64,000 nt of DNA from an uncultured Pseudomonadales bacterium (lineage in GTDB: Bacteria > Patescibacteriota > Microgenomatia > UBA1400 > MFAQ01), in contig CAYGCQ010000002.1 in assembly GCA_964348455.1 (NCBI GenBank), positions 16,121 through 80,120 of the forward strand, given 5' to 3'. The position numbers and the translations under genes were made by a program. Below, one piece after another: positions 14,365 to 33,169 of the stretch. Positions within the stretch are counted from its first letter, which is position 1. The number at the start of each line of letters is the position of its first letter. The notes beneath the pieces were generated by a model. The model was not told the origin of the DNA. It saw only the letters and a program-made list of their open reading frames with translations, and ran no database searches.

Positions 14365-15186
14365 CTATAGCCAGCGGAAATAACTTCCCGGGAAACTAAC
14401 CTCTACCCCTCCAAACCGCCTTTTAAATTCAGTAAAACCTAACCATCTTTTTTGTGGGGTACGTTCGTCATAAATTCCCTCCAGGTCAAAAAAATTTAAG
14501 CCATTGTTTTTGGCTCTGAGTATTTCTTCCCAAACCAGTTTATAGTGAGCTCCTGAAACTCTCCCCACTTCACTTGTCCAGGTTTGATAGTAGTTTGCAC
14601 AGTCTTTGCTGTAAATTATCAAAAGTCCGGAATGATACGACTCTCCCGACCTGCTAACAATAAGCCTAGCATTCCCTTCAAATCTTTTTAAAATACTCGC
14701 CAGCTCCTTTTCTTTCATGGTCCAAACCTTACTATTTTTTTTCCATAATTTGAAAAACTTCCCAGGATCACACTCTTCCACGACTAAGTTTTTATTTTTT
14801 GATATCTGTCTTCTTGCATTTTCTGACAAATCTTTCCAAAGTTCTTTCTCGCTTTTTGTCAGATCAAGGATAAAAGTTTTTGTTGCTAAGTAGGGGAATT
14901 TACTTATTTTATATCCCGCCATTTTATAACCCAGTTCGTCCTGAACTCTCATCGGCTCAATCACCGAAGACACCACTTTATATTTTTTCTTAAGTTTTTT
15001 TAGGGCTTTCCAGTTAGGGTCATATCGAGATCTCTGTAACTTCATCATCTTCATCCCCATTAAACCAAGTGGAATAATAAAGACATTCATGTTGTGTTTT
15101 TTATCTTCAGATACTATAGATATGACCTTCCATCCTTTGTCTTGCAGATATCCTGCCCATCCGGCTGTCTGCCTAATATCTTCCAT
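14365..15186 (-). CDS. FemAB-family peptidoglycan interpeptide-bridge aminoacyltransferase-like protein (second paralog)
   Basis: Pairs with the adjacent FemX-like gene; similar C-terminal region (KRRFGG.. / FKQGYGGEL). Confidence 0.5.
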   Translation of the reverse strand: MEDIRQTAGWAGYLQDKGWKVISIVSEDKKHNMNVFIIPLGLMGMKMMKLQRSRYDPNWKALKKLKKKYKVVSSVIEPMRVQDELGYKMAGYKISKFPYLATKTFILDLTKSEKELWKDLSENARRQISKNKNLVVEECDPGKFFKLWKKNSKVWTMKEKELASILKRFEGNARLIVSRSGESYHSGLLIIYSKDCANYYQTWTSEVGRVSGAHYKLVWEEILRAKNNGLNFFDLEGIYDERTPQKRWLGFTEFKRRFGGVEVSFPGSYFRWL

Positions 15187-16206
15187 CTACTTTCTAATCC
15201 TTGCCACTAACTTCAAAATAGACCATCGGAATTTATCTGCAATCACATAAACACCATAAAGCGTTTTATTAACTACCAAGTCATAAGTTCCTACAAACTC
15301 CGTCAACTCTCCACCATAGCCCTGTTTAAACCTATGAAAGCCATACCAAGGATCACTCTTGTCTGGCTCAGGCCCCATACTTCCCCACATATCAAACATT
15401 TTGCAGCCATGTTTTTTTCCTAGCTTAATCGCTTCCCACATCATCAGATTATTAGCCATCACCTCTCTATTTTCATTGCTTGAAGCCCCATATGGATAAT
15501 ACAAAACGCCATTTAATTCAAAGAGAACCCATGTTGTTAAAACTTTACCTTCATATAGCGCTTTCATCAAATGTCCTCCCCCGGAAACTATCATGGTCTG
15601 CCACATTTTATGATGATATTTTTTACTGTGAGCAAAAAACTTCTGTCTCTTCGTGGTGTCCTCTGTTAACTTCCAGTACTCGTTAAAAGCCTCTTTAGAA
15701 TTATCTTCTACGATTTGGACACCTCTTTTTTCTGCCAAACGAATATTATATCTCGTCTTCTGATGCATATTTTTCAGTATCTCTTCCTCAGACTTGGAGA
15801 TGTCCAGCTGAAAAGTATATTTAGTAAACAGTGGTTTACCTGACTTCAAGTCAAAGCCACGATTCAATTTTTTCAACTTGTCTTCATTTGTTTTTCCGGC
15901 TTTTTCATTCGGTTCAAGCTTGACCAAAATTGCTCCCTTTTTCTCTGCTTCTTGTTTTATTCCCTCCATTGCCTCACTGTTAGGGATGGCTGACTTTGGA
16001 CAATAGCCTATAAAAAATTTGGTCTTCGGGACCTTATGCCAAGTAATTTGATAAACCTCATCAATAACTTCGTCATTTTCTTCCACCAGGCGCAACACCT
16101 CCACCCCGGTCAGTTTTCGGAACTCTCCCCATTGCCATGACTGTAAGGGGTGTCGGGCGACACGGTCAAATGCTTTTTTGTCTTTTTCTGTAGCTTCTCT
16201 AATCAC
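15187..16206 (-). CDS. FemAB-family (FemX-like) aminoacyl-tRNA-dependent peptidoglycan bridge transferase
   Basis: N-terminal HPLQSWQWGEF (FemX FLQSWEWGE-like), 339 aa. Confidence 0.65.
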   Translation of the reverse strand: MIREATEKDKKAFDRVARHPLQSWQWGEFRKLTGVEVLRLVEENDEVIDEVYQITWHKVPKTKFFIGYCPKSAIPNSEAMEGIKQEAEKKGAILVKLEPNEKAGKTNEDKLKKLNRGFDLKSGKPLFTKYTFQLDISKSEEEILKNMHQKTRYNIRLAEKRGVQIVEDNSKEAFNEYWKLTEDTTKRQKFFAHSKKYHHKMWQTMIVSGGGHLMKALYEGKVLTTWVLFELNGVLYYPYGASSNENREVMANNLMMWEAIKLGKKHGCKMFDMWGSMGPEPDKSDPWYGFHRFKQGYGGELTEFVGTYDLVVNKTLYGVYVIADKFRWSILKLVARIRK

Positions 16207-20532: not shown

Positions 20533-22509
20533 CTACCTCACCTTTATCAAGTACGTCCCACCATCTTCAAAAACTTTTACTCCTAGAGATAATATAATAT
20601 CTTCATTTACCTGATACGTAGTTCTCTCATCCTCTCCCACGATAATCCACCCGACGTTATATTCTTTAAGAAGTTCTATTATTTCTACGCTGTTAAAACC
20701 TTCATATATTCCTTTTACATCAGTCTCTCTAGCTGCCACTGGTTCGTACCCACCTCTCCAAAGCCACTCATGAACTCTCCACCCCTGAATAGTAGGCACC
20801 CCGGAAAAAACAGAAACAGCATTAAAGTTTGAGTAACTATCTCCCACCGCTTCCACCATATTTTTACCGTCATAATTTCCCCTTAGATACTTGATTGCAG
20901 CGTATCTTTCCGGCATGCTTGACTCCAACCACCTTTCTCCACTCAAGCCTGAATAGGTATTAAAATTCGCATAGAAATTTGGGAATGCCACTACCGGAAA
21001 CACCATGGTTCCAATGAATATAAATGCTACCGCAAATACGGCAAATGCTCTGTACCACAGAAAAAGTTTTCTTTCTCCATCAAACAACTTACCAAACAGT
21101 GCTCCCGCCAAAAGACCAATCATGATTGAAGCTTGATATGTAAGTTTGAACATTGTGTTTGCTCTTGGGTGATCGGGATAAATATCTTTGGCGTAGACGA
21201 CTTCAGGAATAATGATTAGTAGTAATATACAAATCGCTAATGTCCAGATTGGCAAAGATTTATCTCCTTTTTTCTCAGTCAATACCGCCAGCACACTTAC
21301 TGTTATTCCACCGGTCCACAATACCGCCAGCTCCCAAAGGGGAGTTCTTTCCGTAACCATCTTTATTCCACTCGAAATAGACTGAAAAGTTACAAACCAA
21401 GGTAAGGCCGTCAGTGCCATAAAGAGAAGCATCACTCCGGCAGATTTTAAAAGTTTGACAAACTCTCTATGATCTCTGAGTATCATAATTATTCCCGAAA
21501 CAGTTAGAAGTAGTCCATAAACAGCCACATCCCATGTATTGGTCATCATCATTACTCCAAATAAAATTCCCAGTATCATTTCATCCCATATTTTTCTCGA
21601 ATGAATCCAGTGCAAGAAAATTAAAACAAAAGCCAACACGACCGGCAAATCAATCAGGTGACCATGTAGGTCCGCAACGACGAAAGAGTACCCTGGGAAC
21701 TCGTGAATGGTGTTATGGATAAATCTGGTGGCGTCTGCGTACCAGTAACCCATCAATCCTTTATGATTTAAAAAATACCAAATTACATGGGTATTTCCTG
21801 CCAACACCGTGGCGAATGCTCCGGTTAGTCCTCCAATCATGCCGGACATGTATTTCTTTGTTCCGCTCAAGAAGTATGAAATTGAAAAAGAAATAGAAAG
21901 TGATAGACCGGCTATAAAGGCTAGCATCATGTTATACCCTACGGCCGGGTCGACGCCAAAGTATCGGATAACAATGCTCGCCCAGTAATGCCCAAAAGAA
22001 TAATAGTTTATCGACTTGCCTGCTTGCCACATATCTGCCGCCGGGAGTGTTGGAGACATCAGATATCGGTTTACAAACCCAAAGTCCATAAATTTTTCCA
22101 ATGAGTCAATGTTTGGTAAAAATCCCCTGATATAAGCGATACCAAAAAGACCAACAAAAAATAAATACTCTTCGATGACGATAATTTTAAGAGTAGTTCT
22201 GGAAACGCTAATACTTTTCAATCCGCTTTTAAAGATAATTCCTAAATTTAAAATAATTACACCAGTCGTAGCCAAAATCAAACCCTGGTTTGTGTTGGCA
22301 GCTACACCCAAATTTGCCAGTTCCCAGATGACTAGTCCCGACATCATTGTAGTCAATAGTCTGGAAAGTGGGTAACCATTATCCGGAAGGTTGTGAAACA
22401 ATTTTTTTGTCAAAGGAAAGCTAATAATCTGTAAAAGAAAACTAATCAGATAGACTCTCATTACCAGCGCAATATCAGAGTTAAACATGGTTTTTAAAGC
22501 TTTTAGCAA
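20533..22509 (-). CDS. large polytopic membrane protein, GT-C / DUF2298 (Chlor_Arch_YYY)-like putative glycosyltransferase with a C-terminal extracytoplasmic domain
   Basis: 658 aa, more than 12 TM helices, then a ~170-aa soluble C-terminal domain. FPGYSFVVADLHGHLIDLP resembles the DUF2298 conserved block. Assignment from memory, not searched. Confidence 0.35.
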   Translation of the reverse strand: MLKALKTMFNSDIALVMRVYLISFLLQIISFPLTKKLFHNLPDNGYPLSRLLTTMMSGLVIWELANLGVAANTNQGLILATTGVIILNLGIIFKSGLKSISVSRTTLKIIVIEEYLFFVGLFGIAYIRGFLPNIDSLEKFMDFGFVNRYLMSPTLPAADMWQAGKSINYYSFGHYWASIVIRYFGVDPAVGYNMMLAFIAGLSLSISFSISYFLSGTKKYMSGMIGGLTGAFATVLAGNTHVIWYFLNHKGLMGYWYADATRFIHNTIHEFPGYSFVVADLHGHLIDLPVVLAFVLIFLHWIHSRKIWDEMILGILFGVMMMTNTWDVAVYGLLLTVSGIIMILRDHREFVKLLKSAGVMLLFMALTALPWFVTFQSISSGIKMVTERTPLWELAVLWTGGITVSVLAVLTEKKGDKSLPIWTLAICILLLIIIPEVVYAKDIYPDHPRANTMFKLTYQASIMIGLLAGALFGKLFDGERKLFLWYRAFAVFAVAFIFIGTMVFPVVAFPNFYANFNTYSGLSGERWLESSMPERYAAIKYLRGNYDGKNMVEAVGDSYSNFNAVSVFSGVPTIQGWRVHEWLWRGGYEPVAARETDVKGIYEGFNSVEIIELLKEYNVGWIIVGEDERTTYQVNEDIILSLGVKVFEDGGTYLIKVR

Positions 22510-23779
22510 TTATTTCTGCTACCTCTCGACCCATTTTCACCGCATAGTTTGTCCCTCTATCAAAGGGGTACACCATGCTCATATTCGCCAAGTAGACGTT
22601 ATCAGTAATTTTTTGACTCGGTATATGCTTAGAATAGTTTACAGGGAATACAGGTTGAGCGAAAGGCTTTCGGAATAAGTATGAGTTCTTAATTAATTTT
22701 TTGTCAAAGTTATTGTTAATTTTTTTTATAAAAGGTAAGTACAACTTGAGTAGCTCTACTTTGGTCATATTCAATTGAGCATTATCATCAGGTAAATAGT
22801 TTCCAAGGTAGAGCAATCTATTATTCCCATACATTTTTTTATCAATCATGTTCGTATGTTCTACTGCTACCAAAAATGGAAAATTATTCTCCAAAATATT
22901 TAGCCAATACCCCGATAGTACTTTTCTGGATATCTCCAAAATAAGTGTTTGGCCCCATAGATAATTTAGTTTGGGGAACTTCAGTCCCTTAATAAGCTTT
23001 TCGGCAATTGGCGCAGGCGTCGTAACCACTACGGCATCAAACTCCTCGCCGTTAACAACAATTTTTTTGTTGGAACTCTTATTATCAAGCAATTTGTCAT
23101 CCTCGCGAATGCTGGGATCCACAGTCTTAATTTTCTTGACTACAGTGTTCAACCTTATCTCTCCACCATTCTTTTCAATAAATGTTTCCAGTTTCTCTAC
23201 AAACTCATCAAACCCACCCTCAAAGTAGCCGAGATTCTTTGTTCTTTTTGCTACTCTACTCCAAAACCAAGCTAAATTTACCACATCTACATAAGGTCCG
23301 AACTTGGCTGAGAGTAGTTTTTCCCAAATTAACTCATATCCTTCTCGACCTATTAATCGTGGAAGTGCCTCTACTGCTTTGTATCTTTCCAAGAACAGAC
23401 CATTTGGAATAATCTTTAGCACAAATAGCCCAACACCCATTCTTAGCCTTGACCATAGCGAGAGCTGGGAAAATCTTAAAAGTGAAAGGGGGGAGTCAAG
23501 TCGTACCTCTTTACTATTAAGAAAGCTGGAAGTTATCGGGTTTTTTATTAAAATCTTCGCATTCACTTTTTTCGCAAGGGAAAAAATATCCTTATCATTA
23601 GTAAAAATGTGATGATAGAAAACTTCTAAGTTCCACTTCCATTTTCCAGAATTAAATCCCCGTGCAAGACCTCCTGCTTTTTTGTCTGATTCGAATACAA
23701 CTGAGGAGATATTGTTGTCGGCTAAGTAAGCCGAGCAACAAAGTCCGGTGATGCCTCCACCAATTATCGCAACTCTCAT
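22481..23779 (-). CDS. FAD-dependent flavoenzyme, UDP-galactopyranose mutase (Glf)-like
   Basis: N-terminal Rossmann VAIIGGGITG...E.....GGLAR; YHHIFTNDKDIF matches the UGM GAHIFHTNDKYIW block. Overlaps the downstream membrane protein by 29 nt. Confidence 0.45.
   Translation of the reverse strand: MRVAIIGGGITGLCCSAYLADNNISSVVFESDKKAGGLARGFNSGKWKWNLEVFYHHIFTNDKDIFSLAKKVNAKILIKNPITSSFLNSKEVRLDSPLSLLRFSQLSLWSRLRMGVGLFVLKIIPNGLFLERYKAVEALPRLIGREGYELIWEKLLSAKFGPYVDVVNLAWFWSRVAKRTKNLGYFEGGFDEFVEKLETFIEKNGGEIRLNTVVKKIKTVDPSIREDDKLLDNKSSNKKIVVNGEEFDAVVVTTPAPIAEKLIKGLKFPKLNYLWGQTLILEISRKVLSGYWLNILENNFPFLVAVEHTNMIDKKMYGNNRLLYLGNYLPDDNAQLNMTKVELLKLYLPFIKKINNNFDKKLIKNSYLFRKPFAQPVFPVNYSKHIPSQKITDNVYLANMSMVYPFDRGTNYAVKMGREVAEIIAKSFKNHV
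23095..23120 (+). repeat. REP-like type B element embedded in frame inside the Glf-like CDS (encodes ...VDPSIREDDK... on the minus strand)
   Basis: tgtcatcctcgcgaatgctgggatcc with both family flanks. Confidence 0.5.
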
Positions 23780-23785
23780 CTTTCT

Positions 23786-25198
23786 TTATAGAGCTAAGAG
23801 TATTCCTATGATAGCTAGCATGAGTCCTCCGCCAAATGCGGCTATACCGGGGAAGTCTAAGATTCCAGTCTCAGGAAGTACTTCTCGTTGAGCTACAGCA
23901 TCTGTGGGAGCTACTGTTCCTCCGTCAACGATCTCATCTGTGGGAGCTACTGTTCCTCCGTCAACGATCTCGTCCGTTGGCGCAGCCGTAATCTCGTCCG
24001 TTGGTGCAGCCGTAATCTCATCAGTTGGAGCTGTTGTTGGGCAAACACAGGAACCTGCATCCAAACAGGCTGCTTTTCTACAGGTTTCTGTTCCGGTGTC
24101 ACAAGTTAGACCTGTGGTGCATTCGGAGTCGTCAGTGCATGACTCATTACAAGCAACTACGGACTTGACTGCAAGATCTTTGTCAGCTGTCTTTACGGTA
24201 TCGCCATATGAAAGTTCACTTGTATTTGTAATCACAGTCCCATTCACTGCCGCGTTTGAAACTTTGACCCTAAAAGTAAGCGTCTTTGACGCTCCTACAG
24301 CTAAAGTGATTCCAGAACAGGTAACTTTGTAGTTTGAGTTTGAAAAAGTACAGTCAGTGGTAGTATCTACAAATGTTAACAGATCTTGGTTCTCACCATC
24401 CAATGTATCTGAAACGGTTACATTTGTGGCTGGAGCAGTGCCATCATTTTTAATTACTAAAGCGTATATAAAAGTTTGGTTACGAGAAACTGTTGTGATG
24501 TCGGTTGTGGAACCTTCTTTAAAAGCTTTTTTAGTAATAGACACATCTACCACTTGGCATACAGCAGTTGCAGCACACTGTTTAGTAGTTGCTACTCCGC
24601 ACGAATCCGTACAAGTAGTGATCACCGATGCTGCCTGACCACAAGTAGTAGGACAATCGGGGGAACAAGTTACTTCAGCAGTAGCTACACAAATTGCAGT
24701 TGCAGACACTGAACAGGCCGCGGAAGTTTCGAAACAGATAGTACTGCCATCGGCTTTTTTGCATCTACCGTCGGTTTCGTCGCAGGTAAGTCCAGTAGCA
24801 CACCCGGAGGTTGAAGTACAAACTCCACATTCTGAGGGTTTTGTCGGAGGAGTGGGAGTTGTGGTTGGTGCGGTTGGACATTTAGTCATATCCTTCGTCC
24901 ACGCACCTCCTACGCTAGGGCAACACCAATTTTCATTTCCACAAACCTCTACTCGTCCGGTAGTGGTACAGACGGAATCGCTGGAAGTGCCATCAGACTC
25001 AGGAGGTGTACAGCTTTGTAAGAGGTTCGGTGTCGTTGGGTTCGGACAATGCTCCTCGCAGGTAGCAGCTCTGGAACCTGTTGGGACTATTCCCTGACCT
25101 GTACTAATTCTGTATGAAACAAAGATTGCTGCAGCTGCAATAAGAGCAATAAGAGCTATTGTTATGATTGCGACTATGTTTTTTCTTTTGTTATTCAT
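23786..25198 (-). CDS. Cys-rich, Thr-rich cell-surface protein with a DUF11-like repeat domain and a C-terminal LPETG sorting signal
   Basis: N-terminal TM; many Cys; C-terminal TAAPTDEI repeats; ends VLPETGILDFPGIAAFGGGLMLAIIGILLAL. Confidence 0.7.
   Translation of the reverse strand: MNNKRKNIVAIITIALIALIAAAAIFVSYRISTGQGIVPTGSRAATCEEHCPNPTTPNLLQSCTPPESDGTSSDSVCTTTGRVEVCGNENWCCPSVGGAWTKDMTKCPTAPTTTPTPPTKPSECGVCTSTSGCATGLTCDETDGRCKKADGSTICFETSAACSVSATAICVATAEVTCSPDCPTTCGQAASVITTCTDSCGVATTKQCAATAVCQVVDVSITKKAFKEGSTTDITTVSRNQTFIYALVIKNDGTAPATNVTVSDTLDGENQDLLTFVDTTTDCTFSNSNYKVTCSGITLAVGASKTLTFRVKVSNAAVNGTVITNTSELSYGDTVKTADKDLAVKSVVACNESCTDDSECTTGLTCDTGTETCRKAACLDAGSCVCPTTAPTDEITAAPTDEITAAPTDEIVDGGTVAPTDEIVDGGTVAPTDAVAQREVLPETGILDFPGIAAFGGGLMLAIIGILLAL
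23899..24018. repeat. intragenic tandem repeats: 36-bp unit x2 (perfect) then 24-bp unit x2 (1 mismatch), encoding the TDEITAAP / TDEIVDGGTVAP stalk repeats
   Basis: Direct repeats read from sequence, directly upstream (in gene sense) of the LPETG signal. Confidence 0.8.
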
Positions 25199-25210: not shown

Positions 25211-27190
25211 TTAGTTAGCTGTGGCAACACAAACCCCTAAAGCATCAGGAGTTTTTGAGGATACTTTGCATTCAAACCCAGTCGGGCACTTAATTCCAGC
25301 GACTCCTGCACAAGTTGTTTGAATTGAAGCGGTAGAGGGCGCAGTGCTTACATAAGCCTCGAATTTATATGTTCCAGTTTTTGAAATAGTGTAGTCGTAG
25401 TATGAAGTTAGTTTGGTGGTTGTGTTTAATAGTCCGGAAGCAACAACTTCTACAGTGGAACTTGTTCCCTGAGTAATTCTAAACTTAGCTCTTAAATTCG
25501 CATTGTTTGATCGAACCGCTAATCTAATCTTGTCGTTAATTTTTATTTTGTTTCTTTGGTCCAGGGTCATCGGTGTGGTGTTAAATGTTCCATCAGTTTT
25601 TTGTGAGAACAAGCTAATCTCCATACAAGCACCTGGATTAGCTACGACACACACTTTGGTGCCAGGAACTGTTCTTTTTGTTCCGCAGTTGCTAGTTTGA
25701 TTTACTGTGGCAGTGGTACAAACTGTATTTGCATTAGGTGTCCAACTGGAAACTGTACAGCCTCCCCCTCCACCTTTTGTAGGAGTAGCAGTTACCCCAC
25801 CACCTCCTGTAGAACCGCCGCCACAACCCGAAGTTGACACTACGCATTTGCCACCTGAAATAGCTTCACCTTGGTGACAGCAAAATCTATCTTGGGTTGT
25901 AGCTGTTGCGGTGCTTTTACATGTAAATGCACCAGAGGTATAAGTTGTAGAACAGCAAAGTCCTGGGCTACATACGTCCGTGTACCCTCCGGCGGGTTTG
26001 CATGCTTTAGAGGTAGCACTGTATTCAGGATTTGCTGTAGAACAGCAAAGAGTTGGTGTGCCTACTGAGTTATTGCACGTAGATGCCCCAGCGGTTCCAG
26101 CCGGCAAATTACAATCAACACCCGCTGGACAAGTAGATTTAGACGGATTAGCCACACAAACAGCCCTCGCATTACATCCATCATATGTACCATTTAAACA
26201 ACATGTTAGTTTCATCGTTCCAGGCAAGCTAGAGTTATTAGGAGTACTGCTAAGAGGTGTTGTGCAACTTACTGTTTTTGTATCTTTTCCATATTCACAT
26301 GTTCCGGAAGGAGTTTGAACACATGTTCCTCCGATACACCTATCAGGACTAGTGCACCCAGAATCATTACCACAAATCGTATTGCGACACACTCCACCAA
26401 TAAATTTTTGATCCGCTTCACAACTTTCTGCGGGTGGTGGTGCTGCTGTGGCTGTCCCAGTGAAACACTTTCCACTTAACAAAGGTACTCCAGGGCTACA
26501 ACAGTACTGAGGGGTTGTTGAAGTTGATGAGGAGTAGCACTGTGTGCCTCCGGACTCTGCTCCAAAAGAACATTGTAAATTATTGCCAATAGAGTTACAT
26601 AACTTTTTAGCTGTTGACGGTGTCGGTGTTTTTGCGGGAGTGCCTGTAGCTTGTACACCTCCACAGCCAGATACTTCTGGGTGTCCAATACAACTTGTTT
26701 TTGTAGCATTACAGCTGAAACAGGGGCCGGGGCAGTTTGAAGAAGTACATGTGTATCCTGTTCCGTATCCAGTCGGTGTGGGGGCAATTGGTTTACAAAC
26801 ACCATTAACGCATTTCTCTTTTCCTGCTTTGCACTGAGAGGGGTTGTTTGTACAACCGCCTGCTGCAAACGGCTGAAGTGGTCCGGTCAAGGCTATTCCA
26901 CCTCTGGAAGCCAGCTGATTAGAAACATAATAAGCAGCTCCAGCTACACCCACTACTAGTAGTAAGGCAATCATTCCTAATGCAATTTGTTTAAATTTAT
27001 TTTTCGGTTTCTTCTCTGGCCATTGGATCTCAGGGGTAGTAGGTGATGTTGGTGTTATCGTGGTCGTGGTGGTGGAATCTGGAGTAGTTGTAGTGGTCGT
27101 GGTTAGAGGAGCTCCCAGCGGTTCTTGATTCGGCATCGGAGGATTAAATGGCTGACCGGAAGTTTGATTCGAAAGATTTTGTTCGTCCAT
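25211..27190 (-). CDS. very Cys-rich surface protein (about 60 Cys), N-terminal TM anchor, Thr-rich; paralog of 28244..30208; no C-terminal sorting signal
   Basis: Shares the N-terminal module AGAAYYVSNQL.SR.GIA.TGPLQPFAAGGCTNNP.QCKAGKE.CVNGVCKPIAPTPTGYGTGYTC with the paralog. Confidence 0.65.
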   Translation of the reverse strand: MDEQNLSNQTSGQPFNPPMPNQEPLGAPLTTTTTTTPDSTTTTTITPTSPTTPEIQWPEKKPKNKFKQIALGMIALLLVVGVAGAAYYVSNQLASRGGIALTGPLQPFAAGGCTNNPSQCKAGKEKCVNGVCKPIAPTPTGYGTGYTCTSSNCPGPCFSCNATKTSCIGHPEVSGCGGVQATGTPAKTPTPSTAKKLCNSIGNNLQCSFGAESGGTQCYSSSTSTTPQYCCSPGVPLLSGKCFTGTATAAPPPAESCEADQKFIGGVCRNTICGNDSGCTSPDRCIGGTCVQTPSGTCEYGKDTKTVSCTTPLSSTPNNSSLPGTMKLTCCLNGTYDGCNARAVCVANPSKSTCPAGVDCNLPAGTAGASTCNNSVGTPTLCCSTANPEYSATSKACKPAGGYTDVCSPGLCCSTTYTSGAFTCKSTATATTQDRFCCHQGEAISGGKCVVSTSGCGGGSTGGGGVTATPTKGGGGGCTVSSWTPNANTVCTTATVNQTSNCGTKRTVPGTKVCVVANPGACMEISLFSQKTDGTFNTTPMTLDQRNKIKINDKIRLAVRSNNANLRAKFRITQGTSSTVEVVASGLLNTTTKLTSYYDYTISKTGTYKFEAYVSTAPSTASIQTTCAGVAGIKCPTGFECKVSSKTPDALGVCVATAN

Positions 27191-27468
27191 TTCAGATATA
27201 TTAAGTCCAATAAAATAGGGCCTGAAATAAATATATCTGTTTTATTTCCCAGCGTCAATGATTATTATCATTTACTTTTATCAAATAGTTTTTCTTTTAG
27301 TGTGAGACAAACACTCAATCTTTTTTCCTTCAAAATAACAAGTTAAATGCACTTTTTCTTCACAAAAAAAGTTTCAAATAAAATTTTTATAAATAGAGTA
27401 AAACAAAATCATGAGAAAAAAACTCGCATTATTATTTTTTGCTTAAGACGTGCTGAGTGAACTCCTTC

Positions 27469-28221
27469 TTAGGGTAGAGGTTCTTCTGTTGTTGGCGTCT
27501 GTGAAGTCGAGTCATCAGTCCAAGTGACGTTTCCGAAGTCATCGATGATTATCGCTCTGCATTGATTTCCATAGCGAGCTGTGTTCGGAATGCCGCTACA
27601 GTCCACAGGCTCGTCAGGGTTAACCGTTGCATCTGGAACTACTTCTAGGGCGGGATCAGCCGTGGGGGCTTCGAATGCTGCAGGTTCACTCTCTGGAGCG
27701 GTTGGAGCTACCGCTTGTTGTCCACTGATGGCTTTTGAGACAGCGAAGACCCCACCGCCGGCGAGGCCAAGTACTAATATTGCTATCAATCCAACTATAA
27801 CGGGCGAAGTCCTTGTCTTTTTAGGTAACATTTCTTGGTTGCTAGTCGTCGCTGATGGGGTCGGAAGATCCATAGCTGTACTCGTAGTAGTAGTTGTGTT
27901 TGTCATCGAGTTGGTAGTTCCTGTCTCTCCCATTGGTGTCATTATCGGGGCAGATACGGAAGGTGGTGCTGAAAAAACGGGATTATCCAAGCCTGTAGTT
28001 TCGGGTTGAAAAGATCTTTCTGCCGATGTCGGCTCTGCTGGGGTAATGTCCTCAGTGCTCGTCGTTGTGGTCGTAGTTGTTAAATTAGGTGAGTCGACAG
28101 GTGGGTAGGATTCAGTCGGAGCTATGTCTAAGTTTGGCTGAGCTTGCGGCGGCTGGCTGGAAACAGGGGGTGTTCCTCCGGCTGAAGCGGTATTGAGGTT
28201 CCTTGTGTCGGTATTATCCAT
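27469..28221 (-). CDS. Pro/Thr/Ser-rich bitopic membrane protein, function unknown
   Basis: Low-complexity N-terminal half, central TM VIVGLIAILVLGLAGGGVFAV, 80-aa C-terminal domain with 2 Cys. Confidence 0.45.
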   Translation of the reverse strand: MDNTDTRNLNTASAGGTPPVSSQPPQAQPNLDIAPTESYPPVDSPNLTTTTTTTSTEDITPAEPTSAERSFQPETTGLDNPVFSAPPSVSAPIMTPMGETGTTNSMTNTTTTTSTAMDLPTPSATTSNQEMLPKKTRTSPVIVGLIAILVLGLAGGGVFAVSKAISGQQAVAPTAPESEPAAFEAPTADPALEVVPDATVNPDEPVDCSGIPNTARYGNQCRAIIIDDFGNVTWTDDSTSQTPTTEEPLP

Positions 28222-28243
28222 AATTTATTTTTCTAACTAATAA

Positions 28244-30208
28244 CTAAAGCGCAAGTAATATCCCCACAATTGTAAGTATAAGTCCTCCTCCAAAGGCGGC
28301 CACTCCGGCGAAGTCAAAAATTCCTGCTTCGGGTAATGCTGTTGGCCTAGGAGCTCTCGTTGCTGGGACTCTGGTTGGAACAGAAGCTGTTCGTTCTGTT
28401 GGTTTCGGGCACACACAGGAGGTTATATTTGAACATTCATTGTTTCTGCACTTATTCGTTTCCGTGTCGCATAACAGCCCATCTCCACATTCAGTATCAG
28501 AAGTGCAGGTGTGGTTACAACTCACTATGGTGCTGACTAATAAATCCTTTTCTGCTTTAAGAATTTTTCCCAAATAAGTTACAGTTGCAATATTTTTAAT
28601 TACTGTACCATTGACTACCGCGTCCGAAACGGTTGATCTAAAAGAAAACTCCTTTGTTTCACCCGGATCAAGTGAGGTGTTGCAGACAACCATTTTCTCC
28701 GGCGACGAGTACTCACAGACCGCCTCTTTATCAAGGAAGGTCAGTTTATCTTGGTTTAATCCTGTTAGGGGGTCGGTGATTTTTACCCCATCTGCCTTAT
28801 CAGCCGCATTGTTTGATACTTGAATCGTATATACGAATGTTTGATTTTTTGAGACAGTATCAATTTCCTGAGTCAAAGAGTAGTTTCCTGATGAGTTATC
28901 CGCTTCATCTTGATATGCCTTTTTGTCTATCGAAACATTTGATTCACAGGACTGTGTATTACATGCCTTTTCGGAATTTCCTCCGTCAACCTCATCACAG
29001 TTGAGAGCTCCACCACAACTTCCTTCAGTACAAGTTCTGGTTTGAGTTCCACCTCCACAAGACTTAGTACAATCACTCCAGTCAGACCAAATAGGTGGAG
29101 TTAATACACAAGTTGTCGCGGCCGTAAAATTTCCTTTACATCTATTGTCTTGTCCAAAAACAAGATTTGCCGCCGGTAGCATCAAGTATCTAGCTACGAT
29201 GGTGTAACTTCCTGCCGCCGGTATATTGTAAATATATTCAAATTTTCCGGTTGTCGAATTTAAAATTGTCGGTCCCCAATTTGCATCGTTAATTTTTATG
29301 TCTACTTGGGTAGTATTTTTCGCTGTCACTGCAAATTTTATACGTGAACCTGGCTTTGCTTCAGCTGATAGTTCAGCAGAAGTAAGATTTTTCCAAGACC
29401 CATCTGTTTGTTGAATGGAATAGTCAATGGCGGTACATGAGACAACTGGCGTTGGTGTTGGTGTGGGAGTTTTTGTCGGCGAAGGGGTAGTTGTAGTCTT
29501 CGTTGGTGTCGGTGTAGATGTCTTAGTTGGCTTAGGTGTTGTAGTACTGCCTCCGGAAGAGACACACCCATTACCGCTTGGATTACATACGTATCCCACT
29601 GCACAGCAAGTCATTGCTTTTCCTGTCATATTGATACACCAAGATCTGCCTTGATTCCCACAAGAAATTCGAGTATCGCTTCTACACTCATAACCGGTAC
29701 AAGCATCACCACCTAGACAGTGACAGTCTGCAGCTGGGCATGTTGACCCACAATGGTTAATTACATTTCCATTTGCATCTCTCGGGGCTCCTTCATCGAT
29801 TGGTAGTGCGATGTTTTGTCCTGCTATCCCAGTGCTTGAAACACCCGCACAGCCGAGGGAAATACAACTTGTTTTAGCGGCATTACACTTGAAACACGGT
29901 GATGGACAGTTCGTGGTTGTGCATGTATACCCTGTTCCATAACCTGTGGGTGTAGGGGCAATAGGTTTGCAAACACCATTCACACATGTTTCTTTTCCTG
30001 CTTTACACTGAGCTGGATTGTTTGTACAACCACCAGCAGCAAAAGGCTGAAGAGGTCCAGTTGGGGCTATTCCTGCTCTGGAAGACAACTGATTAGAAAC
30101 ATAATAAGCCGCACCGGCAATTACCACCATCAAAACAGTCGCAATTATGCCTAATAGCAATCGTCGCCTTCGGACTTTATTTTGTTTCAATGACTCTTCT
30201 CCGCTCAT
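28244..30208 (-). CDS. Cys-rich surface protein with N-terminal TM, PT-rich linker, TSP1-like motif, DUF11-like domain and a C-terminal LPEAG sorting signal
   Basis: WSDWSDCTKSCGGGTQTRTC motif; C-terminus ALPEAGIFDFAGVAAFGGGLILTIVGILLAL. Confidence 0.7.
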   Translation of the reverse strand: MSGEESLKQNKVRRRRLLLGIIATVLMVVIAGAAYYVSNQLSSRAGIAPTGPLQPFAAGGCTNNPAQCKAGKETCVNGVCKPIAPTPTGYGTGYTCTTTNCPSPCFKCNAAKTSCISLGCAGVSSTGIAGQNIALPIDEGAPRDANGNVINHCGSTCPAADCHCLGGDACTGYECRSDTRISCGNQGRSWCINMTGKAMTCCAVGYVCNPSGNGCVSSGGSTTTPKPTKTSTPTPTKTTTTPSPTKTPTPTPTPVVSCTAIDYSIQQTDGSWKNLTSAELSAEAKPGSRIKFAVTAKNTTQVDIKINDANWGPTILNSTTGKFEYIYNIPAAGSYTIVARYLMLPAANLVFGQDNRCKGNFTAATTCVLTPPIWSDWSDCTKSCGGGTQTRTCTEGSCGGALNCDEVDGGNSEKACNTQSCESNVSIDKKAYQDEADNSSGNYSLTQEIDTVSKNQTFVYTIQVSNNAADKADGVKITDPLTGLNQDKLTFLDKEAVCEYSSPEKMVVCNTSLDPGETKEFSFRSTVSDAVVNGTVIKNIATVTYLGKILKAEKDLLVSTIVSCNHTCTSDTECGDGLLCDTETNKCRNNECSNITSCVCPKPTERTASVPTRVPATRAPRPTALPEAGIFDFAGVAAFGGGLILTIVGILLAL

Positions 30209-30285: not shown

Positions 30286-31647
30286 TTATTCCTTGATCCA
30301 TTTTCTACTTAGACTGCCAAATAGTAATAATAAAATTCCAAATAGACTAAGCCCCAGAGTCGTTGCCAATCCTCCGGCATCGGTAAGGTCGCCAGATTCA
30401 GTTGCCGGCATCGAAGTCACAACTGTTGGTTCTGGAGTGACAGCCTCGATTGGAGGAAGTGATTCTGTAGGTATCAATATTGGAGTTGCAGACGGAGTCG
30501 CTGTAAAAGCGGGCTGATCACTTAGAAGTACCGAGAACGTTCTAATAATTTTAATTACTTGATTATTTTCGATAGTGTACTCAATCGTTAACGAGTGATC
30601 ACCTGGTTCTAATTTTTCCGGTGGAGTCCACACCCAGTTTCCGTCATCATCTGCTTGAACTACTTGAACTTGCTCTACGGACTTCAAAGTCAATTTGATA
30701 ACCGTTCCTGTTGGAGCTTTCCCTCTTATCTCCGGCTGATCTGTGGCAATTACCTCTCCGTTTGTAGCCGGATTTAGCACTTTAACCGAACTTGTTGCTT
30801 CCAGTTGCTCAGATATGGCTATTTGAGTTAGTTCTAATTGAAATCCTTCACCTGACGGTGCGACTGTTTCCGGTTCTATTGCTGAGATTTGCTGACCACC
30901 TTCAATAAAGCTTTGATTTTTTCCTAATACGATATCCGGCACCGGCTTGTCTTTGCTGGTATCTGTAAGTGCTGTTGCTGTTCCAACACCTCCTGCTTGA
31001 ACAAAAATTGAAAGTAGAGTTTTAGTTTTATCGTAAGTCAATATTCCGCCGGCCTTGTCTCTTGAGCTAGCTAAATTAAGCCTCCAAGTACCATCCGACT
31101 TTGTAATCGTTGAAAGTGTCTGCCCACCCTCTGCTTCCACAAACACAATACCGCCATTTACAGCATCACCAGTTTCTCGAACTACTTTTCCAAAAATAAT
31201 ATCTTCCGGCGGAGCAATGGCTTGTGCGGTTGTTCTAATCTGAAACGGTTTTCCGTTGTCATCATAGGTGCCAGACCCTGAAATGATTAAGAAGTAATAC
31301 GTTTTGTTTGCCGAAAGACCAGAAACATTTACTGTGTGGCTGTTATAACTTTGAGAAGTTCCTGATATTTGGTCTCTAACATCTCCCGCTGGAATTATTA
31401 TTTTTGCCGGATCTTCAGAGTATTTTATTAATCCTGTTAACGGAGTATCCGTAGTCCAACTGACACTGTAAGTTGTCGATCCCAGATTGGAAATCTTAAT
31501 ATTTTTTGGACTCTCGGAAGGTCCGGCTTTGGACTCAAGCCCGGTTCTCATATTTACTACAATGACACCGGCAATCAATCCACCAATAAGAATTATTACC
31601 CCTAATAGGGTCGGAATTCTTTTTGACATTAATCCTTTTGTTGCCAT
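30286..31647 (-). CDS. multidomain surface protein: N-terminal TM, FN3/purple-acid-phosphatase-N-like, carboxypeptidase-regulatory-like and bacterial Ig-like domains, C-terminal LTDAGG + TM + basic tail
   Basis: Domain-like blocks read from sequence; C-terminus ...GDLTDAGGLATTLGLSLFGILLLLFGSLSRKWIKE. Confidence 0.5.
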   Translation of the reverse strand: MATKGLMSKRIPTLLGVIILIGGLIAGVIVVNMRTGLESKAGPSESPKNIKISNLGSTTYSVSWTTDTPLTGLIKYSEDPAKIIIPAGDVRDQISGTSQSYNSHTVNVSGLSANKTYYFLIISGSGTYDDNGKPFQIRTTAQAIAPPEDIIFGKVVRETGDAVNGGIVFVEAEGGQTLSTITKSDGTWRLNLASSRDKAGGILTYDKTKTLLSIFVQAGGVGTATALTDTSKDKPVPDIVLGKNQSFIEGGQQISAIEPETVAPSGEGFQLELTQIAISEQLEATSSVKVLNPATNGEVIATDQPEIRGKAPTGTVIKLTLKSVEQVQVVQADDDGNWVWTPPEKLEPGDHSLTIEYTIENNQVIKIIRTFSVLLSDQPAFTATPSATPILIPTESLPPIEAVTPEPTVVTSMPATESGDLTDAGGLATTLGLSLFGILLLLFGSLSRKWIKE

Positions 31648-31650
31648 ATT

Positions 31651-31971
31651 TTATTGTAGCGGTGGTATAACCTCTGCTGATGGACTTGCTTCCACTAGAG
31701 AAGGTGTCGGGGTGATGGTAGGGGTTTCTTCCGGCACAATCTTTACAGCGTTGATATCATCATCCGTTATTTTTGTTCTTTTTTCTAGGTTATCAATCGA
31801 TGTTTGGCTAATGACACCATCAATAGGCTTCACTATAATTATTTGATTCTCGGTCAGCTGACTTTTTGTAGCAGCAGAAAAAATTTGAAATGCCAGAATT
31901 CCTCCAACAATCGACAAACTCATAACTCCTATGAGTAAAATATACATGGAAAAGGTGTTTTTTGGCTTCAT
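31651..31971 (-). CDS. small N-terminally anchored membrane protein (possible PilP-like accessory), overlaps the pilO-like stop (ATGA)
   Basis: 106 aa, single TM; translationally coupled to the upstream gene. Confidence 0.35.
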   Translation of the reverse strand: MKPKNTFSMYILLIGVMSLSIVGGILAFQIFSAATKSQLTENQIIIVKPIDGVISQTSIDNLEKRTKITDDDINAVKIVPEETPTITPTPSLVEASPSAEVIPPLQ

Positions 31972-32624
31972 GTCTGTTGGTAGAAATAAAAGTATATTTG
32001 ACCAGAAGCTTTCAGTGTTGAAGTTCCCTGTACCATTCCCGGTTCGGAAGTCAACACTACGCTGCTTAGGTATGACAATCTATCCATATTTTCAATCTCC
32101 ATTAAAAATGACTTTACGTTTGCGGGGTCACCTGAAACTGCAAAAGATACATTTAGTTGGACAATGTTATTTGTGTCTTTAATTGACAATTTTCGTGACC
32201 ATTCACCCGATGCTTTTCCTGTTCCAAATAGCTTTGTCCCCGGCATAGAAACTGTTTGTACTGTCAGACCTTTATTCTGGGCAAGATACTCAATCCTGCC
32301 TGCCATATCATAATATGAGAATTGGCTTGGAACAGCTGCGTCAAAAAGGCTCAGTTTATCCTTAAACTTGTTCAGTTCTGTTTGGGCGTTAAAAACTTGA
32401 GCAATTTTATTGTCGGCTTTTATATTAAAAGAATTTAAATCTTCAATCTTTTTTTGCAAAGAGGCGATATTTGTCAGTGTTGGTCTGATGGCTGCAAAAA
32501 TCAACACTGTCACTGTAAATACAGAAAGAATCACTTCTAAAGAAGCCTTAACTTCAGGCTTCTGATAAATCAAGTTTATTCTTCTGTAAATAAGAGAATA
32601 TTTTTCGTTACTTACAAGAGGCAT
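31968..32624 (-). CDS. pilO: type IV pilus assembly protein PilO-like
   Basis: N-terminal TM + coiled coil + about 100-aa C-terminal domain; start overlaps the pilN-like stop (TAATG). Confidence 0.45.
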   Translation of the reverse strand: MPLVSNEKYSLIYRRINLIYQKPEVKASLEVILSVFTVTVLIFAAIRPTLTNIASLQKKIEDLNSFNIKADNKIAQVFNAQTELNKFKDKLSLFDAAVPSQFSYYDMAGRIEYLAQNKGLTVQTVSMPGTKLFGTGKASGEWSRKLSIKDTNNIVQLNVSFAVSGDPANVKSFLMEIENMDRLSYLSSVVLTSEPGMVQGTSTLKASGQIYFYFYQQT

Positions 32625-33169
32625 TATTTTAAAGTAGTTTGAATATTAAACTTTACGGTACCGGATGTCTGGTCGAAGTTTGTTTCTTTCATGGATAAGC
32701 GAGAGATTCCATCTATCTTCTTCAAGTTTCTCAACAGTTGAGCAAAACCTAGCTCGGTCTCCGACTCTCCAGTGAGAACCATACCGGCACTATCAATAGC
32801 CAATTTATCCAATTTAACTCCTGGTGGCATTAAACCTCCCAGCTCATCATATCTTTGGCCAAAAGATAAATTTTTCGTTAAATAGTTATTGACTGGAGCT
32901 TGTTTGGCCAAATAATATCTGATGGTTGCTTCTGTTTCTGCAAACGCTTGAATCTGAATTTGTTTTTGATCTATTTCATCATTTAGGTCATTAACCTTTT
33001 TGTCAAAATAGAACCTAGAACCGAAAGCTAGCAGAACAACGAACTCAGTCAGAACCACCAGCACTCTGCCTGTAGTAGTTGCCCATGACAAAAATTTACC
33101 CAATGAAGAATAACTAAAGCTATCTTTAGGTAATAAATTTATATGGAAAACTCCTTGCTGGGCAGCCAC
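32624..33169 (-). CDS. pilN: type IV pilus assembly protein PilN-like
   Basis: N-terminal hallmark HINLLPK (the PilN INLLP motif) followed by a TM helix and coiled coil. Confidence 0.6.
   Translation of the reverse strand: MAAQQGVFHINLLPKDSFSYSSLGKFLSWATTTGRVLVVLTEFVVLLAFGSRFYFDKKVNDLNDEIDQKQIQIQAFAETEATIRYYLAKQAPVNNYLTKNLSFGQRYDELGGLMPPGVKLDKLAIDSAGMVLTGESETELGFAQLLRNLKKIDGISRLSMKETNFDQTSGTVKFNIQTTLK

Follow-up and report, generated by a model that had tools for sequence, protein, structure and literature searches.

Genes and features of the locus

Four consecutive minus-strand open reading frames (ORFs), here termed genes A, B, C and D, are the subject of this report. They lie in a 64,000-nucleotide (nt) stretch of contig CAYGCQ010000002.1, from an uncultured bacterium of the Patescibacteria, referred to as the window, and as W where genomes are compared. 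The window is part of a bacterial chromosome of approximately 42% GC with housekeeping genes for UvrD-type helicases, LepA, MurJ, DnaK, PNPase, LytR and FemAB, and neither tRNA genes (ARAGORN) nor Rfam families at the gathering threshold were found in its 64 kb. An earlier note on this DNA had described B, D and A as paralogous Cys-rich surface proteins forming a mosaic; all three ORFs exist on the minus strand as given there, and both the paralogy and the mosaic relationship proved genuine. The genomes used for comparison are designated X (L001, CALRDV010000001), Y (L002) and Z (L020). X, a metagenome-assembled genome (MAG) of Patescibacteria, is the sole species-level relative in the genome collection, and its D ortholog is 63% identical. 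The four genes are as follows.

23786..25198, minus strand: gene A, 470 amino acids (aa); A-type; its short basic N-terminus bears the anchor, and Cys-rich modules, a CLIPPER/DUF11 domain, a Cys unit and a linker of repeats lead up to a C-terminal signal of LPETG type.
25211..27190, minus strand: gene B, 659 aa, 7.7% Cys; B-type, identical to cluster sequence P0001, with a Pro/Thr-rich cytoplasmic N-terminus beginning MDEQN, a signal-anchor, Cys units 1 and 2, a variable Cys-rich ectodomain and a C-terminal beta-sandwich, and no LPXTG.
27469..28221, minus strand: gene C, 250 aa, a minimal member with a B-like Pro/Thr-rich N-terminus beginning MDNT, an anchor that keeps the consensus motif QAVAPTAPESEPAA and, beyond it, a short ectodomain in which there are 2 Cys.
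28244..30208, minus strand: gene D, 654 aa, 6.4% Cys; B-like over aa 1 to about 342 and A-like over aa 362 (approximately) to 654.

The segment shared by B and D

B and D share a direct repeat of 267 nt that is ungapped and 80% identical (26687-26953 versus 29861-30127). By blastn the block is 80.6% identical over 258 nt with 0 gaps (E = 1e-66). The earlier note had put the nucleotide identity at about 85%: the block itself is real, and the figure is slightly too high, since identity at the exact coordinates given there is 78% and the best sub-block (26780-26953) reaches 82%. The longest perfect run is 21 nt, GCTTATTATGTTTCTAATCAG, which codes for AYYVSNQ. The corresponding elements of the two genes are listed below.

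26687..26953, minus strand: shared DNA block, B copy, coding for B aa 80-168 (approximately).
29861..30127, minus strand: shared DNA block, D copy, coding for D aa 28-116 (approximately).
26861..27013, minus strand: B signal-anchor, aa 60-110, matched by the anchor hidden Markov model (HMM); KKPKNKFK basic patch, transmembrane (TM) helix ending AGAAYYVSNQ, and juxtamembrane GIALTGPLQPFAA.
30035..30187, minus strand: D signal-anchor, aa 8-58, matched by the anchor HMM.
26687..26860, minus strand: B Cys units, unit 1 at aa 111-134 (C-x6-C-x6-C-x4-C) and unit 2 at aa 136-168.
29861..30034, minus strand: D Cys units, unit 1 at aa 59-82 and unit 2 at aa 84-116.

The encoded proteins align over 124 aa (B aa 60-183, D aa 8-127) with 73% identity (E = 1e-45). 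The likeness extends past the limit drawn in the earlier note, through ...NCPxPCFxCNAxKTSCI to GCxGVxxTG, and spans the TM helix and 10-11 aligned conserved Cys. Low-complexity similarity was ruled out as its source, the block being ungapped, Cys-patterned and significant at E = 1e-66, and an assembly artefact was ruled out by three identical independent assemblies.

The segment shared by A and D

The A-like half of D presents a different picture. As the earlier note had recognized, a C-terminal module combining a DUF11-like domain with a CxxGLxCD unit is common to D and A, with 37% identity over 308 aa (E = 5e-54), and no DNA-level match between the two genes was detectable in the blastn comparison. 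Besides the DUF11/CLIPPER domain and a CNxxCTxDxECxxGLxCD unit, the common region includes the C-terminal signal of LPE[TA]G type and the hydrophobic segment behind it.

28577..28864, minus strand: CLIPPER/DUF11 domain of D, aa 449-544.
24188..24508, minus strand: CLIPPER/DUF11 domain of A, aa 231-337.
28247..28336, minus strand: D C-terminal sorting-type signal, LPEAG then IFDFAGVAAFGGGLILTIVGILLAL, no basic tail.
23789..23878, minus strand: A C-terminal sorting-type signal, LPETG then ILDFPGIAAFGGGLMLAIIGILLAL, no basic tail.

The CLIPPER/DUF11 domain (PF01345) scores 41.4 bits in A and 36.0 bits in D, with a gathering cutoff of 24.6, and orthologs of both proteins also have CLIPPER matches. 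DUF11 has been renamed CLIPPER after crystallography revealed a CnaA-like, isopeptide-bonded stalk domain of fibrillar adhesins, although some DUF11 domains lack the isopeptide bond (PMC12617251). The C-terminal pentapeptide is LPETG in A and LPEAG in D, and LPESG, LPDSG, LPEAG or LPETG in orthologs. The hydrophobic segment ends ...GILLAL with no Lys or Arg, and no basic tail follows it in W, X, Y, Z, L008-L017, P0012 or P0031. Against the TIGR01167 LPXTG_anchor model, the A C-terminus scores 11.3 bits (E 0.46), under the cutoff of 15.9, and the D C-terminus gives no match. As for a sortase, no TLxTC motif occurs among the ORFs of the 64-kb window, and none of the 28 ORFs screened there has a sortase match in Pfam.

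Two minor features of these proteins may be recorded here. The linker of A (23899-24028, aa 390-434 approximately) holds a perfect 36-nt tandem repeat in two copies and a 24-nt repeat in 2.6 copies (92%), encoding APTDEI(T/V)... units ahead of LPETG; the ortholog in L002 has different repeats, and this linker therefore appears to evolve by repeat expansion. D also contains, at aa 373-421 (28946-29092), a thrombospondin type-1 (TSP1)-like unit, WSDWSDCTKSCGGGTQTRTC, which scores 21.3 bits against TSP_1 (PF00090), just under the cutoff of 21.6. This unit, of a domain unusual for bacteria, is also present in the D2 gene of L020 and in the A-type gene of L017.

Probable origin of D by cassette duplication and fusion

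The resemblance of D to B at one end and to A at the other finds a ready explanation in Z, where the genes between E (the gene preceding this family in the operon) and B are D1, D2 and C. D1_Z encodes a B-like protein of 436 aa, with an MDNQ start, the anchor, units 1 and 2, an HC..CHC/RSWC module, the sandwich and its own stop codon. D2_Z encodes an A-like protein of 364 aa that has a complete anchor of its own and, beyond it, the TSP1-like unit, CLIPPER, a Cys unit and LPESG. In alignments, D_W aa 8-216 corresponds to D1_Z, and D_W aa 362-654 is 63% identical to D2_Z aa 79-364 (E = 1e-124).

29102..29182, minus strand: region of D (aa 343-369) in which the fusion junction approximately falls, after the B-type beta-sandwich (ending ...IVARYL) and before the A-type half (beginning CVLTPPIWSDW...).

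Since Z is an outgroup to W and X by MurJ and E identity and D2_Z keeps a full anchor, the simplest history would be a cassette duplication that predates the divergence of W, X, Y and Z, with fusion thereafter in the W/X lineage; this fusion history draws on four genomes. The ancestral operon would have held one B-type gene followed by one A-type gene, the B-A cassette would have been duplicated in the lineage that includes the present genome, and the duplicate pair would have been fused into the single gene D. As a fused duplicate of the B-A cassette, D would be expected to resemble B in its N-terminal part and A in its C-terminal part, which accounts for the mosaic.

Purifying selection and probable gene conversion in the B/D module

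Purifying selection on the membrane-proximal module is very strong. Over B aa 84-150, the B/D comparison gave 0.045 nonsynonymous (dN) and 1.08 synonymous (dS) substitutions per site, and dN/dS ranged from 0.04 to 0.09 depending on the boundaries chosen. One explanation for the likeness of B and D is selection of this kind acting alone, whereby an ancestral constrained module was kept in both paralogs, the copies in X diverged secondarily and no conversion took place. Besides the low dN/dS, distant family members with near-identical units speak for it (P0006 has GGCTNNPSKCKAGKEECVNGVCKPI, and unit 2 of P0002, P0003 and P0007 reads APTGYGTGYTCTSxNCPGPCFxCN), as does the synonymous saturation of unit 2. 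Its bearing was examined by splitting the module into a cytoplasmic plus TM segment (cyt+TM), a juxtamembrane plus unit 1 segment (51 codons) and unit 2, each compared across genomes and by neighbour-joining (NJ) bootstrap.

Cyt+TM: B_W is identical to B_X and to B_Y at 25/33 residues versus 18/33 to D_W; B_Y is identical to B_X at 32/33.
Cyt+TM, NJ bootstrap: B_X+B_Y 100; B_W+B_X+B_Y 74 (grouping by orthology).
Juxtamembrane + unit 1: within-genome identity is 46/51 aa for B_W-D_W and 44/51 aa for B_Z-D1_Z; orthologs of different genomes reach only 30-36/50.
Juxtamembrane + unit 1: B_Y matches D_X at 24/38 but B_X at only 10/42.
Juxtamembrane + unit 1, NJ bootstrap: B_W+D_W 96; B_Z+D1_Z 85; B_Y+D_X 73.
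Unit 2, NJ bootstrap: B_W+D_W 89.

Selection acting alone accounts poorly for these switches of topology between adjacent segments, or for the pairing of B_Y with B_X in the TM segment and with D_X immediately thereafter. Nor does it readily explain the genome-specific states shared by the two paralogs, namely CKAGKExCVNGVCKPI and GIAxTGPLQPFAA in W, and CSSKETCVNGxCKKI and QAVAPNAPESEPQAS in Z. Codon usage in the 51-codon segment points in the same direction, as a synonymous excess is found in within-genome pairs only: identical residues are encoded by the same codon at 29/46 positions in W (expected 18.4, z 3.4) and at 26/44 in Z (expected 16.9, z 3.0), whereas between-genome orthologs lie at expectation (z -1.1 to 0.3). 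For the whole B/D module, the same-codon fraction is 0.60, versus 0.41-0.52 for W-X orthologs of five operon genes, and the control, the C-terminal halves of A and D, shows no synonymous excess (z 0.08). An explanation by selection without any exchange of DNA is thus considered unlikely.

Taken together, the incongruent trees and the synonymous excess indicate gene conversion between B and D after the split of W and X, and independently in Z. On its 5' side, the converted tract has its boundary close to the codons of the invariant AGAAYYVSNQ. B_W has a unit 2 of the D type, whereas that of B_X, B_Y and B_Z is shorter and of the B type; the synonymous saturation of this unit in W suggests an older event or a stronger reliance on selection. 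Duplication of the B-A cassette, fusion of one copy into D, old conversion between B and D and purifying selection are together the probable explanation of the locus. The first 90 or so ectodomain-proximal codons of B and D would have stayed alike through this strong selection, conversion between the paralogs would also have homogenized the module within each genome (concerted evolution), and the last such event would be old. The proposal in the earlier note that recombination produced the mosaic is thereby supported as regards conversion between paralogs, but the mosaic as such would derive mainly from duplication and fusion and not from cassette shuffling.

Several points weigh against this account or narrow it. 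The segments are short (51-93 codons), which makes both dS and the same-codon test noisy, and where codons are highly conserved, codon bias could raise the number of matches. Both paralogs are available in four genomes only; the X contig ends inside B (229 aa), and Y lacks the N-terminus of D. Conversion is not universal, since B and D of X are not homogenized (19/43 aa). Unit 2 of B_W and D_W displays no significant synonymous excess (z 1.3) and is saturated (dS 2.3). Conservation of the ancestral state explains part of the likeness, because the units of P0006, P0003 and P0002 are nearly as close to W as the X orthologs are. The AlphaFold confidence of the module is moderate, with a predicted local distance difference test (pLDDT) score of about 70-80 in the full-length model and below 60 in a focused one. 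Moreover, we infer function, topology, disulfides and sortase processing throughout, and the C-terminal signal lacks a basic tail and falls below the TIGR01167 cutoff.

Age of the exchange and variability of the locus

The conversion appears to be old, as dS between B and D is about 0.9-1.2 and no identical run exceeds 21 nt. The duplication is likewise old, as both B and D occur in X, Y and Z. A recent duplication was ruled out on the same grounds, dS being about 1 and both genes having orthologs in other genomes; the word "recent" in the earlier note does not hold for either process.

That note had also considered the family possibly antigenically variable. Recent duplication or ongoing gene conversion would, in such a scenario, drive antigenic or phase variation of the surface proteins, for which one may cite the mosaic and modular nature of the family, the occurrence of the same modules across A-type and B-type proteins of different genomes, the perfect tandem repeats in the linker of A and the strain variation of Cys-rich extracellular proteins in other bacteria of the candidate phyla radiation (CPR; PMC4736985). 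Apart from the divergence just described, the assemblies argue against it. B is identical in NCBI, ENA and Logan assemblies, and L003, L004 and L005 (ENA ERZ27247837, ENA ERZ27247817 and Logan ERR3094302), which stem from other samples or runs, match the window at 100% identity in alignments of 7980, 6249 and 4504 bp that take in B, D and A. Within the 64-kb window there are no silent cassettes or further copies of the module beyond the two that are 80% identical. Ongoing variation is accordingly regarded as highly improbable.

Gene conversion among paralogous surface-protein genes is well established for Neisseria opa and pil and for Borrelia vls. The present locus resembles these systems in that within-genome paralogs are closer than orthologs over a tract and adjacent segments are incongruent, and its conserved flanking sequence could serve as a recombination anchor. 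It differs from them in having no silent cassettes, no near-identical tracts and no strain-level variability among the assemblies compared. In addition, the converted tract is the conserved membrane-proximal part and not the exposed variable part, and the events would be rare, old and not programmed.

A modular family sharing one anchor

A profile of the module, built from two sequences and searched against 1.84 billion representative proteins, recovered 43 clusters at E<1e-3; of these, 11 fall below 1e-10 and 4 below 1e-30. All 43 have the anchor, and most combine different ectodomains with the same C-terminal sandwich. The anchor, corresponding to the first 50 residues or so, is found on at least 40 clusters whose ectodomains otherwise differ, as well as on all of A-D. 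An anchor HMM singles out just four ORFs of the 64-kb window, namely B (1e-23), D (2e-18), C (5e-12) and A (3.5e-7). Beginning at GGCTNNP, the Cys-rich part belongs to the ectodomain and is confined to about a dozen clusters. The N-terminal block of the earlier note therefore resolves into two things: a family-wide signal-anchor of about 50 aa, and two Cys units of narrower range, unit 1 being GGCTNNPxQCKAGKExCVNGVCK and unit 2 PTGYGTGYTCTxxNCPxPCFxCNAxKTSC. No Pfam, NCBIfam or PDB sequence match was obtained for the anchor or the Cys units, and literature searches found no published description of the family. As far as its sequences tell, this anchored, Cys-rich surface-protein family of Patescibacteria is unannotated and modular. 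Its kind is known, being that of modular adhesin-like surface families that evolve by duplication, fusion and gene conversion; what is new is the family itself.

B-type members, of which B is typical, begin with a conserved MDDQNQTNQP, followed by a Pro/Thr-rich stretch of 60-190 aa, a basic patch (K/R)PKxK and a TM segment that ends in the near-invariant AGAAYYVSNQLSTR, with the juxtamembrane consensus QAVAPTAPESxPxA. AGAAYYVSNQL is invariant in 17 aligned members, and the anchor together with the juxtamembrane motif is the most conserved part of the family. Thereafter come a highly variable Cys-rich ectodomain and a C-terminal beta-sandwich of about 100 aa (GACxxIxIYKK...YKFEGQVSTxP). A-type proteins have a short MNKKK N-terminus, the same anchor, Cys-rich modules, one or two CLIPPER/DUF11 domains, a Cys unit and a C-terminal signal with the consensus LPE[TA]G-GI(L/F)D(F/L)PG(I/V)AAFGGGLLLA(I/V)(I/V)GILLAL. 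The same modules, such as PDCPTxCGxxASxIxxC and CTPPxxSDG...CCP, recur in A-type and B-type proteins of different genomes, and module exchange is, on the proteins at hand, a general feature of the family.

25337..25633, minus strand: B-type conserved C-terminal beta-sandwich, aa 520-618, a hallmark of the wider family (pLDDT 88-93).

An AlphaFold model of full-length B, based on a 17-sequence alignment, has one helix spanning 67-94, after which the juxtamembrane residues 93-110 are disordered; small beta-hairpin units follow at roughly 111-140 and 150-175, and the C-terminal sandwich is the only part predicted with confidence. A Foldseek comparison of the B sandwich with the PDB returned nothing significant (best E 0.04, a generic Ig-like fold). 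A focused model of the D N-terminal region was of low confidence (mean pLDDT 47). A word-index search with the 127-aa D N-terminus gave no match and is uninformative, since full-length B later recovered D (P0045) and module-bearing relatives. A metagenome scan with a 4-sequence alignment returned only anchor matches from more distant genomes, which served the comparison of gene order and not the conversion test.

The extreme N-terminus of B-type proteins, MD(D/E)QN(Q/L)(T/S)NQP, is also kept ahead of the hypervariable Pro/Thr-rich cytoplasmic stretch of 60-190 aa (B aa 1-60; P0014-P0042). Such conservation suggests a cytoplasmic recognition element.

Operon context

The genes around A-D in the same operon are listed below.

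32624-33169, minus strand: pilN-like gene, upstream.
31968-32624, minus strand: pilO-like gene, upstream.
31651-31971, minus strand: gene for a 106-aa TM protein, upstream.
30286-31647, minus strand: gene E, upstream; fn3/Big_13, TM at both ends.
22481-23779, minus strand: flavin adenine dinucleotide (FAD) oxidoreductase of PRK07233 type, downstream.
20533-22509, minus strand: DUF2298/Chlor_Arch_YYY membrane protein, downstream.

The order pilN-like, pilO-like, a gene of about 110 aa, E, B-type, A-type, oxidoreductase and DUF2298 is kept in W, X, Y, Z, L013 and L017, as in all related loci of which enough sequence is available; the orthologs have 50-92% identity. L013, L017, L008, L010 and L011 have only B and A, and W, X, Y and Z additionally have D and C between E and B. 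The pilN-like product matches Pfam PilN at 36.8 bits (cutoff 22.8) and the pilO-like product PilO at 25.4 bits (cutoff 22), the PilO match being faint in Z. No pilM or other pilus genes (pilB, pilC, pilins) were found beside them or among the screened ORFs of the window. rpsT/MurJ lie upstream of the pilN-like gene (rpsT in Z), and the DUF2298 protein and the PRK07233-type oxidoreductase follow the A-type gene in every locus that extends past it (W, Y, Z, L013 and L017). The DUF2298/Chlor_Arch_YYY protein scores 404 bits to TIGR03662. Neither for this protein, which may conceivably be a GT-C glycosyltransferase, nor for the oxidoreductase were sequence relatives found in the PDB.

The strictly conserved order with the pilN/pilO-like genes, E and DUF2298 lends itself to another explanation of the B/D likeness, in which the module is a docking or processing signal for one lineage-specific partner (the pilN/pilO-like proteins, E, a peptidase or a glycosyltransferase being candidates) and the proteins have converged without exchange of DNA. 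The invariance of AGAAYYVSNQL in the 17 aligned members and the restriction of the similarity to the membrane-proximal segment would fit such co-evolution. However, convergence of proteins predicts neither an excess of shared synonymous codons nor 80% DNA identity, the consensus motif QAVAPTAPESEP has been lost in B and D of W while kept in C and is hence not strictly required, and the partner itself is hypothetical. Co-evolution with a shared partner as the cause of the likeness therefore seems quite improbable, and old gene conversion under strong purifying selection is retained as the preferred explanation.

Proposed function and sorting

Patescibacteria (CPR) are mostly obligate episymbionts, and to our knowledge their host recognition and attachment are largely unknown. 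A-D would be adhesin-like envelope proteins of such an episymbiotic bacterium. Because basic residues precede the TM segment and a region with 6-8% Cys follows it, a topology with the N-terminus inside and the C-terminus outside is predicted; the anchor would thereby place a disulfide-rich ectodomain outside the cell, with the shared module forming the ectodomain base next to the membrane. B and C, which have no C-terminal signal, would be held by the N-terminal anchor and retained unless cleaved after AGA. A and D resemble sortase substrates, given their CLIPPER stalk-type domain and LPxTG-like signal, and their processing would probably occur at LPE[TA]G. A conserved anchor, a hypervariable ectodomain and a fixed operon near pilN/pilO-like genes make the members of this family reasonable candidates for host attachment.

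The earlier note had supposed that the conserved N-terminal block could be a dedicated export or processing signal. This is plausible for the first 50 residues or so only, that is, for the basic patch, the TM segment, AGAAYYVSNQLSxR and the Pro-rich motif. It is conceivable, though rather doubtful, that the N-terminal element is the recognition signal of an undescribed, Patescibacteria-specific sorting or modification system encoded by the same operon. The element would then consist of the MDDQNQTNQP start, the Pro/Thr-rich cytoplasmic arm, the basic patch, the TM segment ending AGAAYYVSNQLSxR and QAVAPTAPESxPxA. The system would consist of the pilN/pilO-like bitopic proteins, the small TM protein, E, the FAD oxidoreductase and the polytopic DUF2298/Chlor_Arch_YYY protein, and could dock cargo on a PilNO-like platform or O-glycosylate the Ala-Pro-Thr motif. 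If so, the module would have evolved in concert because it tracks this machinery.

Specialized N-terminal signal peptides that mark subsets of surface proteins are known, such as YSIRK-G/S and KxYKxGKxW. The present element is comparable in being a conserved motif at the signal-peptide or TM region common to many otherwise different surface proteins of one lineage. Unlike them, it lies at or after the outer end of the TM segment (AGAAYYVSNQLSTRQAVAPTAPESxP) and has no sequence similarity to them, and in B-type proteins it is preceded by the Pro/Thr-rich cytoplasmic extension of 60-190 aa with its MDDQNQTNQP start.

Comparison with other surface proteins and significance

The closest parallel in design is offered by sortase-anchored fibrillar adhesins and pilins of Gram-positive bacteria (PMC12617251), with which A and D share an N-terminal signal or anchor, CLIPPER, Pro/Thr-rich linkers and LPE[TA]G followed by a hydrophobic segment. 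The window also holds FemAB-family cell-wall genes (14365-16206). In contrast to those adhesins, the proteins described here have one CLIPPER domain and not tandem arrays, contain 6-8% Cys in many small disulfide-type units and have a signal without a basic tail, with no sortase found in the window and B and C lacking a C-terminal signal. Moreover, their N-terminal anchor is a family-specific conserved element and not a generic signal peptide.

Within the CPR, Peribacteria encode large Cys-rich extracellular proteins, with a mean of about 1,655 aa and a proposed role in attachment, in genomes that also have sortase and type IV pilus genes; weak similarity of these proteins to Cys-rich repeats of Myxococcus was noted (PMC4736985). 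Membership of the CPR, the richness in Cys, the predicted export and the weak Myxococcus-repeat similarity are common to both groups. In the present proteins, the last is confined to A aa 350-370, where TIGR04201 scores 14.8 bits (E 0.023, cutoff 25), and units 1 and 2 give no match to it. Compared by description only, the two groups differ in that the present proteins are of 250-660 aa with a shared anchor and a fixed operon, neither of which was described for Peribacteria.

The locus is a clean example of how a family diversifies by cassette duplication, gene fusion, module exchange and gene conversion. These evolutionary mechanisms are textbook ones, and the value of the case lies mainly in improved annotation and in the hypotheses that it raises; it offers a way into the surface biology of the CPR.

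Further sequence elements of the operon

The stretch 27141-27265 (minus strand), which covers the region upstream of B and the start of the gene, is 90% identical to L001 12585-12709, whereas the flanking coding DNA is only 74-79% identical. It includes a sigma70-like promoter, TTGACG-17-TATATT (27258-27230), the 5' untranslated region and the first 50 nt or so of B, and an inverted repeat, TTTCAGG...CCTGAAA, in the untranslated region adjoins the ATG. This conserved stretch suggests that B is served, within the operon, by a conserved promoter and leader of its own. At the C-terminus of gene E (30289-30387), (E/D)LTDAG is followed by a hydrophobic segment and the basic tail SRKWIKE, with ELTDSG in X and ELEDAG in Z; this could be a second, different sorting-type signal in the operon.

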